From: an uncultured Actinomycetes bacterium | Lineage (GTDB): Bacteria; Actinomycetota; Actinomycetes; S36-B12 | Assembly: GCA_903960135.1 (NCBI GenBank) | Contig: CAJBZP010000068.1 | Span: 1 to 63,209, forward strand | Direction of reading: 5' to 3' | DNA: 63,209 nt | Part shown: piece by piece, positions 2,596-48,029 of the stretch | Layout of the letters: each line of letters starts with the position of its first letter | How positions within the stretch are numbered: position 1 is the first letter of the stretch | The notes under the pieces: generated by a model | What the model was told of the DNA's origin: nothing | What the model saw: the letters and a program-made list of their open reading frames with translations, nothing else | The model's database searches: none | Translations under genes and position numbers: made by a program

Positions 2596-4113
2596 TTACT
2601 CGCTAACCCCGAGGCGGTCGAGCAGTAAGGCGCGTACCTTCGCCGCGTCAGCCTGCCCCTTTGTCGTCTTCATGACCGCACCGACGATGGCCCCGGCTGC
2701 TTGAATCTTGCCGCTCTTGATTTTCTCCACTACATCTGGCTGCGCCGCAAGGGCCTCATCAATTGCCGCAAGTAGGGCGCCATCATCACTGACCACGGCC
2801 AGGCCACGCTGCGCAATCACCACATCAACATCGCCTTCCCCTGCCAACACCCCCTCGAAAACTTGACGGGCAAGTTTGTCGTTGAGGCTGCCATCTGCTA
2901 TCAAAGACTCCACTCGGGCAATCTGGGTAGCTGTCACCGGTAAATCTGCCAACTCGACTCCGCGCTCATTGGCAACGCGTAGTAACTCACCGGTCCACCA
3001 CTTGCGGGCCGCTGCCGGATCCACCCCGGCAGCGATACTGGACTCAACGAGTTCGACCGCCCCGGCATTTACCAAAGTTGCCAACTCAAACTCGTTTATC
3101 CCCCAGGTGCTTTGCAGACGAGCCCGCTTGACGGATGGCACCTCCGGTAGCTCTGCCCGCAACTCCTCCACCCAACTACGAGTTGGCGCAATCGGCACGA
3201 GATCCGGCTCAGGGAAATAGCGATAGTCCTCGGCCTGCTCCTTTGACCGACCCGAAGTAGATCGGCCGGTGTCCTCGTGAAAGTGCCGGGTCTCCTGAAT
3301 TACCCGGCCGCCGCCGTCCAAGACGCCCGCCTGCCGCTCGATTTCAGAATGCACGGCGCGTTCGACCGAGCGCAGTGAGTTCACGTTTTTCGTCTCGCTG
3401 CGGGTACCCCAACCGGCGCCCGGTTCATTTAGCGACAGGTTCACGTCGCAGCGCAAAGAACCTTCCTCCATGCGCACATCAGAAACGCCGAGGGCACGCA
3501 TAACATCACGCAATTCGGCTACATAAGCACGCGCGACGGCGGGCGCCAACGGCCCGGTGCCGATCACGGTCTTAGTCACGATCTCGATCAGCGGGATCCC
3601 CGCCCGGTTGTAATCCACGAGGGAGTAGTCAGCGCCATGGATGCGACCGGTCGCACCACCGGCGTGGGTCAGTTTGCCGGTGTCCTCCTCCATATGTACC
3701 CGCTCAATTTCGACTCGCACCACCTGCGGACCATCATCGGTTGCAACAGTTACGTCAAGCCAACCATTGGTGCAAAGTGGCTCGTCGTACTGACTGACTT
3801 GATAGTCCTTGGGCATATCCGGATAGAAGTAGTTCTTGCGAGCGAACCGGCACCAGGTAGCGATCTCACAATTCAATGCCAGGCCGATACGAATGGTTGA
3901 CTCCACGGCCACCTTATTCAACACCGGCATCGAGCCCGGTAGTCCAAGACAGACCGGACACACTTGCGTGTTTGGCGGTGCGCCGAATGCCGTGGCACAG
4001 GAGCAGAACATTTTTGAATTAGTGCCGAGTTCGACATGGACTTCAAGCCCGATGATGGGTTCATACCGGGTCATCGCCTCATCGAATGGCACTGTTAGTT
4101 GGGCGTTGCTCAC
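2596..4113 (-). CDS. gatB: Asp/Glu-tRNA amidotransferase subunit B
   Basis: 505 aa. N-terminal [31 protein letters not shown] motif, C-terminal GatB/YqeY tail. 4-nt overlap with gatA. Confidence 0.95.
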
Positions 4114-24729: not shown

Positions 24730-24740
24730 AACTAAACATG

Positions 24741-24832
24741 CACGGGAGCTCCTGCCTAGTGGAGCTGAGAGGGCGACAGCACGGCGTCGCCGACCGTTCG
24801 AACCTGTCCGGGTAATGCCGGCGTAGGGAGGA
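24741..24832 (+). promoter_or_regulatory. TPP (THI-box) riboswitch
   Basis: Reads GGGAGCUCCUGCCUAGUGGAGCUGAGA-(GC hairpin GGGCGAC..GUCGCC)-GACCGUUCGAACCUGUCCGGGUAAUGCCGGCGUAGGGAGG. The hallmark CUGAGA, GAACCUG and GGUAAU..GCGUAGGGA blocks are all present. The 3' AGGGAGG is also the SD of the downstream ORF. Confidence 0.85.
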
Positions 24833-24834
24833 TT

Positions 24835-25443
24835 TTGGTGTCGATGTTCATGAACGTGGCCTTCAGTGCGTGGAACTATGACGTAACGGTGCTTGAGTTG
24901 CTGGCCGTGATTACCGCATTTATCGGAATCGGTCTGGCAATCCGCGGGACGCGGTGGGCGTGGCCGTTCTATTTCCTCTCAAGTGCCCTATATGGCTGGC
25001 TGCTCTGGGAGTACGCCCTCTACGGCACCGCGGCCCTGCAATTGGTTTTTATTGCCGCGGCAATCTGGGGTTGGTTCGGGTGGGGGCCGAAATCCATCAC
25101 CCCCACCACCGTCAGTAATCGAACCCGCCTGATCCTCCTGGCTGGCAGTCTCGCGGCCTGGCTCGCCTTGGTGCCCGTCCTCGCAGCAATCGGGGATCCA
25201 GCGCCGTGGCCCGATACTTTCGTCTTTGTCGGCAGTGTCGTCGCCCAGGTATTGATGGTCCGTGAGTACGCAGAGTCGTGGGTCCTTTGGATGGTCGTAA
25301 ATGTTGTGGGAGCCGCCCTTTACGCAACACAAAACCTCTGGTTCACCTCGTTGTTCTACGCGGCGCTAATTGTGCTGGCGGTGATTGGCCTGCGTAGCTG
25401 GCTAGCCAAGCGGGCACCGCTCCCGGGTTCGACTCACCTATGA
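24835..25443 (+). CDS. pnuC: PnuC-family transporter (predicted thiamine-specific PnuT type)
   Basis: 202 aa with about 7 TM helices. LYGWLLWEY...IWGWFGW Trp-rich PnuC signature. Controlled by the TPP riboswitch. Start is TTG 24835, GTG 24838 or ATG 24844. Confidence 0.8.
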   Translation: MVSMFMNVAFSAWNYDVTVLELLAVITAFIGIGLAIRGTRWAWPFYFLSSALYGWLLWEYALYGTAALQLVFIAAAIWGWFGWGPKSITPTTVSNRTRLILLAGSLAAWLALVPVLAAIGDPAPWPDTFVFVGSVVAQVLMVREYAESWVLWMVVNVVGAALYATQNLWFTSLFYAALIVLAVIGLRSWLAKRAPLPGSTHL

Positions 25444-40661: not shown

Positions 40662-42458
40662 GTGCTAAAGGAGTTCTCCGTCCCGGTGATCGTCCCGGCC
40701 CCCACCTCGGGGAGCTTGGTCGACCACATCACCGAAAATGCCGAGCAGGTGCCAGACAAAGTTGTCTTCTCGGTGCCCCGCGGGGCCGCTTGGGTCGGCA
40801 TCACAGCCAAGCAATTCAATGACGAGGTCAAGGCAATCGCCAAAGGCATCATCGCGAACGGGGTCGAGCCGGGCCAGCGCATTGGCATCATGTCGCGCAC
40901 CCGATACGAATGGGCATTGGTCGACTACGCGATCTGGTACGCCGGAGCCGCAAGTGTGCCGATCTACGAGACGTCATCGGCGGAGCAGGTGCAGTGGATC
41001 CTTAGTGATTCCGGAGCTGTTGCCGTGTTCCTCGAGACCCATAAGCACAAGGCGGTATTCGACCAGGTTGCAGTTGAAATCCCCGACGTCACGCGCATGT
41101 GGGTGCTAGACGACGGAATTCTTGAAGATCTAAAGTCAGCGGGCAAAGGTGTCAGCGACGACGAACTTGAATCTCGGCGCGCGACTTTGAGCCCAGCCTC
41201 CGTCGCGACCATCATCTACACCTCCGGTACCACGGGGCGACCGAAGGGCTGCGTGCTCACGCACAGCAACTTGATGTTCGAGGTCGACAACGTGGTCCAG
41301 GGCCTCAAGGAGGTGTTCTTGGTCGAAGGGTCGTCAACTTTGCTGTTCTTGCCGGTTGCCCATGTATTCGGTCGCCTTATTCAGCTGGGCTGCGTTCGAG
41401 CCCGCGTGCGCCTGGGCCACACCGCCGATATCAAGGAGCTTCTCCCAAACCTGCAATCCTTCCAGCCGACCTTCTTGCTCGCGGTGCCCCGAGTTTTCGA
41501 GAAGATCTACAACTCCTCGCAGCAAAAGGCGAATGCCGCCGGCAAGGGGCATATCTTCGAAACCGCAAGCCAGGTGGCCATCGACTACAGCAAGGCCCTT
41601 GATGACGGTGGCCCCGGGATCGGCTTGAAGATCAAGCATGCTGTTTTCGACCGCTTGGTCTACAAGAAGTTGCGCGCCGCAATGGGTGGGAAGCTGAAAT
41701 GGGCGGTTTCCGGCGGCGCACCACTTGGCTCCCGACTCGGGCACTTCTTCCGCGGTATCGACGTCACGATCTTGGAGGGCTACGGCCTGACCGAAACCAG
41801 TGCCGCCACCACAGTAAGCCGACCACATGCCCTGCGCATCGGCAGCGTCGGCCAGCCGCTGCCGGGGGCCAGCGTCAAGGTGGCCGATGACGGCGAACTT
41901 CTGCTCGCGGGTGCCCAGATCTTCGCCGGCTATTGGAATAATCCGGCCGCCACGGCCGAGGCCATCGAACCCGATGGCTGGTTTCACTCCGGCGATATCG
42001 GCGAAATCGATGATAAGGGCTTTGTCCGAATCACCGGCCGCAAGAAGGAGCTCATCGTCACCGCCGGCGGAAAGAATGTGGCTCCCGCTGTGCTCGAAGA
42101 TCGAATTCGCGCCAACTGGTTGGTATCGCAGTGCATGGTCGTCGGCGATGCCCAACCATTCATCGCAGCACTTGTCACCATCGACCCCGAGGCATTTCCG
42201 GCTTGGGCTAAGCAAGCCGGTAAACCCGAATCTGCAACCATTGCCGACCTTGTTGCCGATGCGGATCTAACTGCTGCGGTGCAATCGGCAATCGATGAAG
42301 GGAACAAGGCGGTGTCACATGCCGAGGCCATCAAGAAGTTCGTGATCTTGCCTAATGATTGGACCGAAGAGGGTGGCCAGATGACCCCTTCAATGAAGTT
42401 AAAGCGCAATATCGTGATGAAGGAATGCGAAGGCGAGATCGCCGCCCTGTATTCATGA
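40662..42458 (+). CDS. fadD: long-chain fatty-acid-CoA ligase (FadD15-like)
   Basis: 598 aa. AMP-binding motif YTSGTTGRPKG, plus GYGLTETS and TGDIGEID-like blocks. Confidence 0.9.
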   Translation: MLKEFSVPVIVPAPTSGSLVDHITENAEQVPDKVVFSVPRGAAWVGITAKQFNDEVKAIAKGIIANGVEPGQRIGIMSRTRYEWALVDYAIWYAGAASVPIYETSSAEQVQWILSDSGAVAVFLETHKHKAVFDQVAVEIPDVTRMWVLDDGILEDLKSAGKGVSDDELESRRATLSPASVATIIYTSGTTGRPKGCVLTHSNLMFEVDNVVQGLKEVFLVEGSSTLLFLPVAHVFGRLIQLGCVRARVRLGHTADIKELLPNLQSFQPTFLLAVPRVFEKIYNSSQQKANAAGKGHIFETASQVAIDYSKALDDGGPGIGLKIKHAVFDRLVYKKLRAAMGGKLKWAVSGGAPLGSRLGHFFRGIDVTILEGYGLTETSAATTVSRPHALRIGSVGQPLPGASVKVADDGELLLAGAQIFAGYWNNPAATAEAIEPDGWFHSGDIGEIDDKGFVRITGRKKELIVTAGGKNVAPAVLEDRIRANWLVSQCMVVGDAQPFIAALVTIDPEAFPAWAKQAGKPESATIADLVADADLTAAVQSAIDEGNKAVSHAEAIKKFVILPNDWTEEGGQMTPSMKLKRNIVMKECEGEIAALYS

Positions 42459-42514
42459 ACTGCCGGTATTCATGAACTGCCGGTCTTCACGAACTGCCGG
42501 TCTTCATGAAACTG
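42451..42514. repeat. 17-bp tandem repeat (ATGAACTGCCGGTMTTC), three full units plus partial copies
   Basis: Units at 42455-42471, 42472-42488 and 42489-42505, then a degenerate ATGAAACTG. The first unit contains the fadD stop codon (42456-42458). Confidence 0.9.
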
Positions 42515-42613
42515 TGCACCCGATGAAAAGTTCGGGCTAGCCGACTACCCGGCCAATCCCGGTGAAGTGCTGCGCGTACCAAGGCGCGAGCACATTGGTG
42601 ATTATGACGCCGT
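42506..42613. repeat. direct repeat copy A (108 bp, 1 mismatch to copy B)
   Basis: 42506-42602 is identical to 44387-44483. After one mismatch, 10 more matching bases follow. The offset is 1881 bp. Confidence 0.95.
42537..42613 (-). pseudogene. orphan 3' fragment of the ripC-like NlpC/P60 gene
   Basis: Encodes GVIITNVLAPWYAQHFTGIGRVVG*, identical to the C-terminus of the intact gene at 44418-45491. The upstream reading frame bears no resemblance to NlpC/P60. Confidence 0.85.
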
Positions 42614-42774
42614 GAACTTGGAGCTTGGTTCGGTTGGATACGAGAAAAGTGAAATTCATCACGAGATAGCGAATATTAAGTGCGAGCAAGTGGCGCGAAG
42701 GTTTGGATATGCGTACGTGAATGATTACATGGGAAGGTCTTCCAACCCTGAAGTTACATACTCTCGTTGGCAAC

Positions 42775-42990
42775 TTAAAATCTAGGCGAACTAGCTTCTA
42801 AAACTTCTACAATAAGTTGCAACGATTCCCTAGCCCATGCCACACCATCCGCGTCGAGACCTTCCTCAAATTCAATTCCTAGCCCGTTAGTAGGTGCTGG
42901 GTTGACATTTGCTGTCGATTGGGCAGATTCCGTTAGGGGCGATCCAGCCACACCGACCCGTGAGTTGACCGGCTGATGCGCTGAACCCAT
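42775..42990 (-). CDS. hypothetical small protein or gene fragment
   Basis: 71 codons from ATG 42990. Only the C-terminal part (GIEFEEGLDADGVAWARESLQLIVEVLEASS) looks protein-like. The 228-aa track ORF extending to 43461 is antisense to the secreted-protein gene. Confidence 0.25.
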   Translation of the reverse strand: MGSAHQPVNSRVGVAGSPLTESAQSTANVNPAPTNGLGIEFEEGLDADGVAWARESLQLIVEVLEASSPRF

Positions 42991-43017
42991 GCGTCGCCGC
43001 TGGTAGCGTCGCGGCGT

Positions 43018-43938
43018 ATGGGACCACTTGGAACGTCCGTAAGGGCGACAGCCGCGCTCGGGCTGTGCCTGTCTGCCGTGACGGTTGGAGCGGTCGCACC
43101 AGCACCGAGCGCCTTTGCGGTGAGTGGCCAGACAGCAAGGATCGTCGATGACCCGAGGGCCCCAACGGTCTCGAAGGCGACCTGGCGCGAGTACCTGACC
43201 GCGATCACCGATGCGGCCGTTGCGCTTCCCTCCGAGGTCGCCCGCGATCTGCTGGTGCCCGCGCCGAGCGACGCACGCACCAGGTGGAAAACCATCGACG
43301 GGGTTGACTATCTGCTCGTGACCGCCCTGAGGTTCGCCCCGGTGAGCACCGTGGATCCCGGTGCGCAATTCACCCTCGATGCCAGCCGTTGGGTGTCGAT
43401 TCCCGGGCAGCTCGCCTCGGAGTGCGTCCGGTACTCCTGTGCCAAACTCGGCACCCAGCAACTCGATCTCACACTCAAGCAGGTCCTTGGCCTGCCGCCG
43501 GATGCCGACTACCGCTACGTCTCAGAGTTCTGGGTGAAGCCGGCCGACATGTTCCGGCCGTGCACCGACCCGCGGATCACCAGCCCCAGTTGCCCAGAAC
43601 TTGTCGTTGGTGCGTCCGCCGGAATCCCGACGACGGTGGGGGAGGTGACCCTCACGGAGTTCCTGTGGTCGCAGGCGAACTACGCATGGCGGGCGCCTGA
43701 TCGATTCCGGCCGAAGGCGGCCGTCTCCTGCGCTCAGGATTATGCGAACGCATCCGTCGGTCAGTGCTACGGCTTCCCGTGGACCCGGCTTGGGTACACC
43801 TACGACTGGAGCCCGGGGGCGAAGGACGACATCGGCCTCACCGAGTTCGTCGTGGCGAAGGGCGCTGTCGCATATCTGGAGAGGGTCGGGACCCAGCGCG
43901 AGTTCTTCCCATTCTCGAAGCGGGGCAGCAAGCCATGA
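43018..43938 (+). CDS. secreted hypothetical protein, six Cys in the mature part
   Basis: 306 aa. Signal peptide ...LGLCLSAVTVGAVAPAPSAFA. Aromatic-rich C-terminal block QCYGFPWTRLGYTYDWSPGAKDD. No family recognised. Confidence 0.6.
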   Translation: MGPLGTSVRATAALGLCLSAVTVGAVAPAPSAFAVSGQTARIVDDPRAPTVSKATWREYLTAITDAAVALPSEVARDLLVPAPSDARTRWKTIDGVDYLLVTALRFAPVSTVDPGAQFTLDASRWVSIPGQLASECVRYSCAKLGTQQLDLTLKQVLGLPPDADYRYVSEFWVKPADMFRPCTDPRITSPSCPELVVGASAGIPTTVGEVTLTEFLWSQANYAWRAPDRFRPKAAVSCAQDYANASVGQCYGFPWTRLGYTYDWSPGAKDDIGLTEFVVAKGAVAYLERVGTQREFFPFSKRGSKP

Positions 43939-43939
43939 C

Positions 43940-44380
43940 CGTGCCCGATTCGACCTGCCCAAAACCCACGCCCTGGATGCTCTCGCTGTTGGTCATCCCG
44001 ACACGGTCGACGCCATCCATCCGACCGTCACGCGAACACTCACAATCACTAGCAACGGACGCGGGCAATACCAGCGCACGAAACCTGACAAGTACGGCTT
44101 CCCCCGCCTCAACCTGACCCGCGTGAAGTCCCATCACGGGTTCCAAACCGGCGACATTGTTAAAGCCACCGTCCCTGCAGGGAAACACGCAGGCACCCAC
44201 ACCGGCAGGGTCGCAGTTAGAAAATCAGGTTCCTTCAACATCACCTCAACCCTTGGAACCATCCAAGGCATCAGCCATAAGCGCTGCACCGTCCTCCAGC
44301 GTGGAGACGGTTACGGATACCTCTGGAAGGAGGAAGCGTTCTCCTCCCGGCCCTTGAAGGACCGGGTTTCCGAACGCTGA
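43940..44380 (+). pseudogene. C-terminal remnant of an IscB/IsrB-type (RRXRR-HNH, OMEGA) RNA-guided nuclease
   Basis: The frame-2 translation FDLPKTHALDALAVG...GRGQYQRTKPDKYGFPRLNLTRVKSHHGFQTGDIVKATVPAGKHAGTHTGRVAVRKSGSFNITSTLGTIQGISHKRCTVLQRGDGYGY matches my recollection of the RuvC-III (H..DA) plus C-terminal target-interaction region of actinobacterial IscB-like HNH endonucleases. The N-terminal RuvC-I/II, bridge helix and HNH are absent. Confidence 0.6.
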
Positions 44381-44386
44381 AACTAG

Positions 44387-44494
44387 ATGAAACTGTGCAC
44401 CCGATGAAAAGTTCGGGCTAGCCGACTACCCGGCCAATCCCGGTGAAGTGCTGCGCGTACCAAGGCGCGAGCACATTGGTGATGATGACGCCGT
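44387..44494. repeat. direct repeat copy B
   Basis: See copy A. Copy B is contiguous with the intact NlpC/P60 gene. Confidence 0.95.
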
Positions 44495-45491
44495 CACTAG
44501 GGTTCGCCGCGTGCACCATCTTGCCGCCGCCAATGTAGAGGCCGACGTGGTGCACACTGCCACCGAAGTAAAACACGAGATCCCCTGGCTGGGCTTGACT
44601 GAGCGGTATCTTGCGCGCTGTTTGGTATTGCGAATAGCTGTAGTGCGGCAAGGAGACGCCGCCTTGGCGCCAAGCGCTCATCGTGAGGCCGGAGCAATCA
44701 AATGTTGTAGGGCCAGACGCGGCGGCCACATAGCGATCGCCAACTTGTGAAAGGCCGTAACGAACCGCAGCCACCGCCCGGCTGCTAACGGAGTAACCAC
44801 CACCGCTAAAGCTGCTGCTATTTAGTTCTTGTGCGGCTGCTGCCGCCGCTGCAAGTGACGCCTGTCTTTCACTAGCCGCCATTGCAGCCAGGCGTTGCCG
44901 CTCTGCTGCTTCCAAGGAATTTAGGATGGCCTGCGCATCGGCCAGCCGGTCATCGGCTTCCTTCTTCGCGTCGGCCATTTCGGCACGTACCTGGCGGGCG
45001 GCGTCCTCTTTTTGCTGCAGGGTTGCCTCACTTTGAGCCAACCGCAACCGAGCGGTCTGGGAGGCCCGCAGGGCATCGGCTTGCCCCTTGGCTACTTGGT
45101 CCAGGGCGGAGGCTTGGGCTAGAAACTGGGCTGGATCTTCTGCGAGCAGCACCTGCAAGGAAGCATCGACCCCACCACCGGTATAGGTGGCCCGGGCGAG
45201 ATCATCAACCGCACCGGAAATCGCAGTTAGCTCCCGACGCTCGACCGCGATCTTGTCTTTCAGGGTCGCCAGCGCTTCGTCAATGTCATTTAAGCGGGCT
45301 CGGGCATCGTTGAAGCGCTCGTTGGCCGACTCGGCCTTGGCCTCTAGCTCAAAAACTTGCTGGCGCACCTCGCCCAGATCGCGGGCCGCTGCCGGTGCGG
45401 CCAAGGCGGTGGCGCCGATCAGGGCGGCGCTGACGGCAGCCAGTGCAACTGACCTAGTTCGACGCGACCGCAGCACCCGCATAAACCGCAC
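44418..45491 (-). CDS. RipC-like secreted peptidoglycan endopeptidase (coiled coil plus NlpC/P60)
   Basis: 357 aa. Signal peptide, long Ala/Glu/Gln-rich coiled-coil region, C-terminal NlpC/P60 with catalytic FDCSGL and HHVGLYIG. The GTG start is preceded by GAAGGGAG. Confidence 0.85.
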   Translation of the reverse strand: MRFMRVLRSRRTRSVALAAVSAALIGATALAAPAAARDLGEVRQQVFELEAKAESANERFNDARARLNDIDEALATLKDKIAVERRELTAISGAVDDLARATYTGGGVDASLQVLLAEDPAQFLAQASALDQVAKGQADALRASQTARLRLAQSEATLQQKEDAARQVRAEMADAKKEADDRLADAQAILNSLEAAERQRLAAMAASERQASLAAAAAAAQELNSSSFSGGGYSVSSRAVAAVRYGLSQVGDRYVAAASGPTTFDCSGLTMSAWRQGGVSLPHYSYSQYQTARKIPLSQAQPGDLVFYFGGSVHHVGLYIGGGKMVHAANPSDGVIITNVLAPWYAQHFTGIGRVVG

Positions 45492-45907: not shown

Positions 45908-46189
45908 TCACGGGCCGCCATCTCCTGGTCCTTCGGTGCTGGGGCCACCAAACTCAGGACGCGGAACGATCTCGATCCGGTCGGTGGCGGCGCACCACCG
46001 ACATTGAACCTGGTCGATTTCCTCGGTCAGCACGGTGGTTTCCTCCACCACCGGCGCACCAGAGATATCAACATGCCAAAACTCACTTACCTTGGCCTTG
46101 CGCACCACATCAAAGCGGGTCAAGTTACCGCAATGGGCACAGCGAAAGCGTGATTTTGAATCCGGGAGGGTGCGTAGGGTGTCGGCCAC
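45908..46189 (-). CDS. zinc-ribbon hypothetical protein
   Basis: 93 aa. CAHCGN ... CRWCAA pairs. Confidence 0.5.
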   Translation of the reverse strand: MADTLRTLPDSKSRFRCAHCGNLTRFDVVRKAKVSEFWHVDISGAPVVEETTVLTEEIDQVQCRWCAATDRIEIVPRPEFGGPSTEGPGDGGP

Positions 46190-46238
46190 GGCAGCACCTT
46201 ACCGGGATTTGTCGGAGGGTTGCCTTAGCGTGCATCAC

Positions 46239-48029
46239 ATGCCGGCCGTTGCCCCTGTCAACCAGCAGTTGAGTCTTGCCGACCTCGGTACCCGACTAAG
46301 TGCCGCGACTTTCGTCGTGGTTGACCTCGAGACCACCGGTGGGCCGCCGGCCGAGGCCGGTATCACCGAATTCGGAGCGGTGAAGGTAACCGGGGGGCAG
46401 GTTATCGGCGAGTTCGCGACTTTGGTCAATCCCGGTAGCCCAATACCACCATTTATCGCGGCCCTCACCGGCATCACGGACTCTCTTGTTGCCACGGCGC
46501 CACGACTTACTGCGGTACTTCCCAGCTTTTTGGAATTCGCCCGCGGCAGCGTGCTCGTCGCCCACAACGCCCCCTACGACATCGGATTCCTAAAGGGCGC
46601 CTGCCTGAAACTCGATCACGAATGGCCGGGCAACCACGTTATCGACACGGCCCGGCTTGCCCGGCTCACGCTACACCGCGATGAAGTCGCAAATTGCAAA
46701 CTTGCGACCCTCGCCGCCTACTTTCGCACCGACGTCACACCCACGCACCGAGCTTTTGATGACGCCCGCGCCACCGCTGACGTCTTGCACCGGCTCCTCG
46801 AGCGCGTCGGCGACTTCGGCGTCGAAACCCTTGAGGATCTTGCCGCATTTACCTCCCGCGTGACCTCGGCCCAGCGCACGAACAGGCATCTCGCAACAGG
46901 TCTACCTGATGCACCTGGGGTCTATATCTTTCGAGATCCCCAAGGTGAGGCGCTTTATGTCGGCACCTCCAAGAACATCCGCAAACGAGTGCGCACCTAC
47001 TTCACCGCCTCGGAGACTCGGCGCCGAATGGACCAGATGATCACCATCGCGACTTCAGTTGATCCGATCGTGTGCGCCACCACACTTGAAGCCCGGGTTC
47101 GTGAACTTCGACTAATCGCAACCAAGCAGCCCAGATATAACCAGCAATCAAAGCGACCCGAGCGTCAAACCTGGCTGAAATTAACCGCAGAAACTGCGCC
47201 ACGCTTAGCCATTGTCCGCGAAGTTCGCGACGACACCGCCGGCGGCGCCTGCTACTTGGGGCCCTTTCGATCCAGCGCTGCTGCCCAAGAAGCCGCAGCA
47301 GCATTGCAATTCGCGTTACCACTTCGGGTTTGCTCGACCAAACTGGCGCGTAAACCTCGTAGCACCACGGCGGGCTGCGCCCTCGCTGAACTTGGTAAAT
47401 GCCTGGCCCCGTGCACATCGGCGGTAGACCACCTCGAATATGACGCCCTAGTTGAACGCGTCCGCTCGGCAATGTCCGGCGCAGTCGAACCCGTCGCATC
47501 AGCGGTACATGAGCGTATGCGTGAACTCGCTGATCAAAGCCGTTTCGAAGATGCCGCACTCTGGCGCGACCGCCTCGCCCACTTCGTGCAGGCCAGCGTG
47601 CGCACACATCAGCTGATGATGCTGGCAGATATTGAACAAGTAGTCGCCGCCAAGCTGACTTCGGCGGGCGGCTGGGAGGTGCACTGTATTCGCTACGGCG
47701 CACTTGCCGGCGCGGCCACGATCATGGCTGGTGTTGACCCGCTCCCAGTGGTGGCGGCCATGATTGCTGCCGCGGACGTCATCCCCGCACCCAAAGCGGG
47801 GGCCCTTGCCGCACTGACCGAAGAAGCCGAGGCGATCTTGGCCTGGCTGGGCGGTGACTTCGTTCGATTGGTGCGCACCAGTGCACCACTTGCCCTGCCA
47901 ATTGGCTGCGGGGGTGCACTCCTTGCCAAGCTCGGTCAGGTCCGCGAGGAGATCCGCGCCCAAGAGCCCGTTGACTACCAATGGCTATCGGCGGCTGCCC
48001 GGAGTAAACCCGTCACCCGCATCGCTTAG
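46239..48029 (+). CDS. DEDD (DnaQ-like) exonuclease fused to a GIY-YIG/UvrC-like domain
   Basis: Exo I VVVDLETTGG and Exo III HRAFDDARATADV. GIY-YIG PGVYIFRD...ALYVGTSKNIRKR. The start is moved to ATG 46239 because the track start at 46035 overlaps the divergent zinc-ribbon gene. Confidence 0.85.
   Translation: MPAVAPVNQQLSLADLGTRLSAATFVVVDLETTGGPPAEAGITEFGAVKVTGGQVIGEFATLVNPGSPIPPFIAALTGITDSLVATAPRLTAVLPSFLEFARGSVLVAHNAPYDIGFLKGACLKLDHEWPGNHVIDTARLARLTLHRDEVANCKLATLAAYFRTDVTPTHRAFDDARATADVLHRLLERVGDFGVETLEDLAAFTSRVTSAQRTNRHLATGLPDAPGVYIFRDPQGEALYVGTSKNIRKRVRTYFTASETRRRMDQMITIATSVDPIVCATTLEARVRELRLIATKQPRYNQQSKRPERQTWLKLTAETAPRLAIVREVRDDTAGGACYLGPFRSSAAAQEAAAALQFALPLRVCSTKLARKPRSTTAGCALAELGKCLAPCTSAVDHLEYDALVERVRSAMSGAVEPVASAVHERMRELADQSRFEDAALWRDRLAHFVQASVRTHQLMMLADIEQVVAAKLTSAGGWEVHCIRYGALAGAATIMAGVDPLPVVAAMIAAADVIPAPKAGALAALTEEAEAILAWLGGDFVRLVRTSAPLALPIGCGGALLAKLGQVREEIRAQEPVDYQWLSAAARSKPVTRIA

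Follow-up and report, generated by a model that had tools for sequence, protein, structure and literature searches.

Prophages and islands are known to integrate with replacement of a gene 3' end, as e14 and phage 21 do in icd of E. coli. For naturally transformable bacteria, insertions accompanied by a duplication have been described that arise by homology-facilitated illegitimate recombination or unequal sister exchange. IscB-type elements of the IS200/IS605 group usually share the orientation of the upstream gene. Their omega RNA lies upstream of iscB with the right end as its boundary, which leaves the iscB 3' end facing the left end (Meers et al., bioRxiv 10.1101/2023.03.14.532601). For the Geobacillus IscB element (GstIscB) the target-adjacent motif (TAM) TTCAT is located 5' of the left end, and transposition of IscB elements produces no target duplication (bioRxiv 10.1101/2023.03.14.532601). 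In the related IsrB the C-terminal domain is the TAM-interacting domain, and the preferred TAM is NTGA (PMC9581776). Here we describe an islet of 1773 nt between a fadD-like and a ripC-like gene, flanked by 108-nt direct repeats, in 63,209 nt of DNA from an uncultured Actinomycetes bacterium (assembly GCA_903960135.1, contig CAJBZP010000068.1; this whole stretch is called the window). With a probability of roughly 0.6 the islet is the scar of several events, and the repeat arose when host DNA was duplicated by a single illegitimate join of two copies of the locus, one empty-type and one occupied-type.

The edges of the islet are formed by the following features:
40662-42458, plus strand: fadD-like gene for a long-chain acyl-CoA synthetase of 598 aa, left native flank (Pfam AMP-binding, E 3.7e-75, and AMP-binding_C_3)
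42506-42613, no strand: repeat copy A, native spacer and orphan ripC 3' stub, contiguous on its left side with the fadD spacer (empty-type); assigned by repeat and relative comparison, position 42603 T/G polymorphic
42613/42614, no strand: junction J1, the sole illegitimate join of native ripC sequence to foreign DNA, which creates the duplication; homology to the ripC of relatives ends at 42613, where copy B carries on into ripC
44387-44494, no strand: repeat copy B, ATGAA target motif (TTCAT on the minus strand), native spacer and the functional last 77 nt of ripC (occupied-type)
44418-45491, minus strand: ripC-like gene for an NlpC/P60 peptidoglycan hydrolase of 357 aa, intact, right native flank (Pfam NLPC_P60, E 2.2e-24; full length compared with relatives)

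The two copies match in 107 of 108 nt at a start-to-start offset of 1881, as determined with a repeat finder and blastn; a sequence-only reading of the window had given the same coordinates, offset and pattern of 97 identical nt, one mismatch and 10 identical nt. The sole mismatch, at 42603, leaves Ile unchanged in the ripC frame (ATC to ATA): copy A has T where copy B has G. In L001, L002 and L004, three other strains, copy A carries G and the copies match over 108/108 nt. Therefore, the copies were identical at their origin, and T at 42603 is a later synonymous change. Copy B consists of 31 nt of spacer (44387-44417), which includes a small hairpin at 44400-44417, and 77 nt of ripC (44418-44494). 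The sequence-only reading was right about the spacer, but it counted the stop codon in addition to the 77 nt, which already include it. Copy B supplies the 3' end of the intact ripC and copy A is an orphan stub beyond the fadD stop, both as that reading had it. Copy A starts 47 nt past this stop (42458), and a 17-nt tandem array lies between.

The same reading had explained the repeats by site-specific integration: recombination of attP and attB over the ripC 3' end and spacer would have given attL and attR, and the integrase and the rest of the element would have been deleted later. Direct repeats that bracket foreign DNA at the end of an intact gene are what such an event leaves behind. No third copy of the 108 nt was found by blastn of the region against the whole 63-kb window, which counts against integration, as does the lack of an attP-type junction in IMG/VR. 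Furthermore, no integrase, excisionase or other element gene was detected in the insert with Pfam, NCBIfam, PHROGs or a homology search of small open reading frames (ORFs), so the reported absence of an integrase holds.

Further evidence on the mechanism comes from the right end of the insert, which holds two features:
43940-44380, plus strand: iscB 3' remnant that retains RuvC-III (motif KTHALDA) and the C-terminal, TAM-interacting domain but lacks the first ~300 codons
44335-44386, plus strand: terminus of an IscB-type IS200/IS605 element with its conserved hairpin, on the side where iscB ends (left end according to Meers et al.)

The remnant is 60% identical to residues 300-428 of a 439-aa PGAP-annotated IscB of Polaromonas (E 7e-53) and matches phrog_2214 at positions 307-428 of 429. 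Its homologues are annotated as HNH endonuclease or RRXRR (323 proteins), and the plasmid matches as 'RNA-guided endonuclease IscB'. By these alignments, 43940-44386 represents the last ~130 codons of the gene for an IscB RNA-guided nuclease together with the element end. Everything before RuvC-III is missing from the remnant, including the PLMP/RRXRR, split RuvC and HNH parts. Judged by what is left, it is a fossil, predicted to be able neither to cut DNA nor to move. A Y1 transposase TnpA is absent from the insert. For the omega RNA (HEARO, RF02033) no hit was obtained in the window even at E<=5, while the RNA was recovered upstream of iscB in the control loci L030 (83 bits) and L029 (64 bits); an omega RNA hidden in the AT-rich segment of the insert was rejected on these grounds. 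The closest homologue of the remnant (63% aa identity) lies in L029 at 3001-3723, where only 240 aa are called and a HEARO RNA is present at 1984-2247. This homologue lacks the conserved terminal block described below and is probably itself decaying.

The transposon end was defined by comparing elements from six plasmids; megablast of multiple element copies within the Polaromonas plasmid gave no usable boundaries. An extended hairpin at 44335-44378 follows the conserved DGYGY motif and has a DNA fold z-score of -2.6. The six proteobacterial-plasmid IscB elements share the block GCGCT...hairpin...GTTTC.CGC...(T)GATGA, and their similarity ends right after ATGA. When the islet was included (seven-sequence alignment), GTTTC, CGC and the terminal GATGA were invariant, and 5 of the 11 predicted pairs showed compensatory changes. 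G 44386 closes the conserved terminus in the window, and ATGAA at 44387-44391 (TTCAT on the ripC-sense strand) forms the first five bases of copy B. An identical ATGAA opens copy A in native spacer context (…GGTCTTC/ATGAAACTG…, the slash marking the start of the copy). Since conservation of the terminus stops at the ATGAA of copy B, the left edge of this copy is a canonical junction of transposon end and target, and not the edge of an att core. This boundary speaks against site-specific integration.

The surviving end also suggests a different explanation, in which TnpA supplied in trans used it together with a surrogate second end and moved the whole 1881-nt unit as a cargo-carrying transposon. 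Candidates for the surrogate are the host hairpin with TTCAT at the end of copy A, or TTCAC straddling J1. In a variant the unit is still movable, and the 108-nt 'repeat' is the captured surrogate end including the host terminator hairpin and TTCAT. The geometry is suitable, as TTCAT precedes the unit on the minus strand and the unit ends with hairpin-N8-TTCAT, and the right-end motif of the Geobacillus elements (TTCAC) spans J1. Alternative end motifs that capture flanking DNA were shown experimentally (bioRxiv 10.1101/2023.03.14.532601). However, J1 must exist before such a unit can, which leaves the duplication unexplained; a hairpin is missing from the AT-rich end (z +0.9), no tnpA is known here, and the identical cargo gene, ORF306, occurs in one context only (24/24 contigs). 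We regard transposition of the unit as very improbable, and its continued mobility as just as doubtful. If true, such capture would show how IS200/IS605 elements acquire passenger genes. The TTCAC, at 42609-42616 on the minus strand, has no hairpin nearby and was judged a chance occurrence; the AT-rich end was accordingly rejected as a second transposon end.

The origin of the repeat was examined by comparison with relatives. The RipC-like protein was scanned against species-representative genomes and metagenome contigs, which gave 14 related loci, assigned to freshwater Actinomycetes of the acSTL or 'Candidatus Nanopelagicales' type; 12 of them cover the junction. In each of these (L013-L019, L022-L026) fadD and ripC converge directly, their stops lying 17-48 nt apart, and the fadD product is 91-96% identical in relatives with an empty site. 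ORF306 or IscB homologues were not found within the flanks of the 12 loci. The predicted result of deleting one repeat and 1773 bp, a simple convergent fadD/ripC junction, thus exists in relatives. The closest of them, L022, has an empty site at 94% (RipC) and 96% (FadD) aa identity. Its spacer of 27 nt is clearly homologous to that of the window, and its segment equivalent to the repeat is identical in 92 of 105 nt (88%). The 31-nt spacer part of the repeat evolves fast; it has a counterpart only in L022 and is unalignable in L013, L015 and L016. Because the spacer is homologous in L022 and unalignable in distant relatives, both repeat copies are native, lineage-specific sequence. Empty sites in relatives are compatible with site-specific integration as well, but the attP of an independent element is not expected to match a lineage-specific spacer.

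Two of the related loci were found under unexpected names. In L014 (CAMBQX010000085.1, a metagenome-assembled genome labelled 'Bifidobacterium breve') and L018 (CAZJYN010000007.1, 'uncultured Rubrivirga sp.') the fadD-ripC locus belongs to the acSTL/Nanopelagicales type and shares the gene order of the window, at 83-91% and 60-75% aa identity, respectively. Both contigs are probably mis-binned.

Within the species the structure is constant. Repeat and insert were recovered at 99-100% identity in many independent metagenome assemblies (L001-L007, L020, L036), and nine sequences aligned over 42300-44700 differed at only a handful of sites. Exact protein look-ups returned the same neighbours in all contigs with identical RipC (22/22), ORF306 (24/24) and FadD (25/25), from different samples and assemblers, and none of these contigs had an empty site. 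The islet has become fixed in this freshwater actinobacterium. Since contig L007 stops 2 nt past copy B, a repeat that is collapsed or chimeric could be suspected. Both copies are spanned in identical order in many independent assemblies from different samples and pipelines, though, and an assembly artefact is refuted with near certainty.

Between the repeats, the DNA in front of the iscB remnant comprises the following parts:
42614-42920, no strand: AT-rich orphan segment of 307 nt, ~46% GC (GC profile)
42921-42968, plus strand: pirin gene 3' stub, the last 16 codons, left edge of an operon fragment; aligns to the pirin 3' end upstream of the ORF306 homologue in L021
43018-43938, plus strand: ORF306, the cargo gene, intact, for a predicted secreted protein of 306 aa; homologues in freshwater Actinobacteria at other loci

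Three pieces with sharp joints make up this mosaic insert, namely the AT-rich orphan DNA, the operon fragment and the iscB remnant. In the 63-kb window the 1-kb bin at 42-43 kb has the lowest GC content (0.532) and that at 43-44 kb the highest (0.660), at a mean of 0.595. The DNA between the repeats is accessory, as proposed before, given its atypical GC content and its absence from the 12 relatives' loci. For the AT-rich segment (42614-42920) three concatenated peptides gave no homologue among 5.8e9 proteins, and neither a DNA match in plasmids, phages and IMG/VR nor an Rfam hit was obtained. With no protein matches and PHROGs noise only, an integrase or other coding remnant in this segment was rejected. 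A promoter scan gave a single sigma-70-like match in it, at 42753-42781 on the plus strand, upstream of ORF306.

The second piece, 42921-43945, shows 89% DNA identity to contig L021 (64% GC), and no other part of the insert matches this contig. The translation of the pirin stub is GQIPLGAIQPHRPVS followed by the stop. At the other edge the first 10 nt of a major facilitator superfamily (MFS) gene, which overlaps the ORF306 stop as in L021 and L008, are retained up to 43945. From this similarity the piece appears to have been cut from a pirin-ORF306-MFS operon of another actinobacterium with higher GC content. Genes of phages, plasmids or integrative and conjugative elements were not found in the insert, nor was there a DNA match in phages or plasmids. 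An atypical composition would suit an integrated element, yet the content is a chromosomal operon fragment plus a remnant of an insertion sequence. Taken together with the boundary at the IscB end and the native, lineage-specific copies, the three-part mosaic makes site-specific integration improbable, and the mechanism proposed by the sequence-only reading is probably wrong.

The explanation we favour instead, an illegitimate join of two locus types, comprises three steps, of which the first involves one further feature:
42449-42510, plus strand: 17-nt tandem array of 3.6 units, repeating the fadD stop region (Tandem Repeats Finder score 103)

In a first step an IscB-type IS200/IS605 element would have entered the fadD-ripC spacer beside TTCAT on the ripC-sense strand. 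The palindrome TTCATGAA, which lies in the duplicated fadD stop region, may have supplied the motif, and the element would be oriented like fadD. This palindrome is present in three array units and equals the IscB-type target motif on both strands. In a second step the omega RNA, the other transposon end and ~300 iscB codons would have been lost and replaced by the operon fragment and the AT-rich segment of 307 nt. Such a replacement would take at least one or two further illegitimate joins. In the third step the empty-type part, from fadD through copy A to 42613, would have been joined non-homologously at J1 to the occupied-type part, consisting of islet, transposon end, copy B and ripC. This could have happened by unequal sister-chromosome exchange, by incoming DNA that was anchored in ripC and underwent homology-facilitated illegitimate recombination, or through a small circle that integrated by a single homologous crossover. 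What looks like gene repair would follow because a join inside ripC is viable only if a second intact 3' end comes along. ORF306 itself is maintained by selection, as a secreted protein. As another source of the duplication, aberrant repair after IscB had cut the donor joint was considered, but the geometry does not fit. The empty-type part extends 108 nt past the target motif, which places the break at J1 instead of at the guide target, and the idea was rejected.

The circle route can be put in a more specific form. A 1881-nt circle of the islet and one 108-nt copy, excised illegitimately from an occupied allele, would have entered an empty-site chromosome by a RecA crossover of the Campbell type. 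Exactly the observed topology would result, and the perfect identity of the copies as well as the empty-type left and occupied-type right side would be accounted for. The same illegitimate join at J1 is needed, however, and beyond it a circle as well as a crossover within no more than 108 nt of homology, and no circle junction was seen in the viral contigs of IMG/VR that were scanned. This sequence of events is therefore rated as unlikely.

Several points weigh against the join of two locus types. An intermediate allele, either an intact IscB element in the spacer or the islet without the duplication, was not found. No close (>63% aa) full-length IscB was present in the protein collections, and steps one and two therefore rest on anatomy; both are visible in it, and we infer their order and the route of the third step. 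The route also needs at least three events. Finally, long identities between attP and attB are known for some actinomycete integrative elements, with ~112 bp for SLP1. A repeat of this length would therefore by itself be compatible with an integrase, and a decayed element can always be postulated.

The cargo gene was characterized further. ORF306 and its homologue in L021 differ with dN/dS = 0.17, which indicates purifying selection. An AlphaFold2 model reached a predicted local distance difference test (pLDDT) of 84.6 and a predicted template modelling score (pTM) of 0.80, with residues 1-46 disordered and signal-peptide-like. ORF306 gave no Pfam or NCBIfam match and no fold match in the PDB (best E 1.3); the sole structural neighbour of the model is an uncharacterised protein of Orpheovirus. 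The family comprises 1955 representative clusters at 50% identity (E<=1e-3), is without a Pfam or NCBIfam model and has invariant residues within the motif PWTRLGYTYDW. Its members often sit between a pirin gene and an MFS transporter gene (L008-L011). Other contexts are an aldo-keto reductase and a GT8 gene (P0130) or an acyl-CoA dehydrogenase and a hydrolase gene (L012).

The 17-nt array at the fadD stop varies in copy number among strains, with one unit fewer in L003, L005 and L020; it is absent from the closest relative L022, which has a single unit. Positions 42485 and 42490 of the array are also polymorphic between strains. An independent 18-nt duplication was observed at the same site in L015. 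Across J1, a chimeric ORF of 78 codons (42537-42773, minus strand) is a fusion of 53 codons from the AT-rich segment with the orphaned final 25 codons of RipC. It is without a homologue and is probably not a gene; the other strand of this stretch also has an open frame. A 17-nt inverted match between 42405-42421 and 42655-42671 was judged to be chance.

The product of the target gene scored 128.9 bits with the NCBIfam RipC model (NF038345), under the cut-off of 425. It is an NlpC/P60 protein with coiled-coil N-terminus, RipC-like and not a curated RipC equivalog. Beyond it, a Cho-like gene at 46035-48029 (plus strand) encodes RNase_T exonuclease, GIY-YIG and UvrC_M domains. Its start is uncertain, as gene callers gave 596 or 599 aa on identical contigs compared with 664 aa for the longest ORF. 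The only Rfam family above the gathering score in the window was a thiamine pyrophosphate (TPP) riboswitch at 24732-24846 on the plus strand (RF00059, 66.9 bits), and no tRNA genes were found in the window.

In general, direct repeats that seem to rebuild a gene are no proof of integrase action. Genome scans should treat them with caution, because one repeat boundary here is a junction of transposon end and target, and the repeat itself would be duplicated host DNA. A streamlined, small and abundant freshwater actinobacterium of the acSTL/Nanopelagicales type would have gained and fixed one gene for a secreted protein through illegitimate recombination associated with an insertion sequence. 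The understanding of IscB or of integration is not changed, and no new kind of system is involved. Two by-products are of some interest, the polymorphic array with a transposon target motif on both strands and the ORF306 family. The latter (~2000 clusters at 50% identity) has no Pfam model and a confident predicted fold without a solved counterpart, and merits characterisation.

Compared with homology-facilitated illegitimate recombination or unequal sister exchange, the islet shows the same asymmetry, with one homologous side (ripC), one non-homologous side (J1) and mosaic inserted DNA. Duplication, the outcome here, is rarer in that process than deletion, and the process itself is deduced from the DNA in the present case. 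With e14 and phage 21 in icd the locus shares foreign DNA at a gene 3' end, a duplicated 3' segment flanking it and an intact gene. In those prophages, however, the duplicate is borne by the element and diverged and an integrase is present, whereas here both copies are identical native sequence including the spacer, no recombinase is found and one boundary is a transposon end. Unlike intact IscB elements with a HEARO/omega RNA, the islet has retained just one end and the final third of the gene; omega RNA, the RuvC-I/II and HNH parts, the second end and TnpA are missing. Like the IscB-encoding IS200/IS605 (OMEGA) elements, it has a C-terminal part of 130 residues that is 50-63% identical to annotated IscB proteins, the conserved terminal hairpin with GTTTC...CGC...GATGA, an end that abuts ATGAA/TTCAT and the orientation of the upstream gene. 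The islet is thus a fresh example of known processes, in which a fossil IscB-type insertion, a captured gene and a duplication of host sequence are combined.

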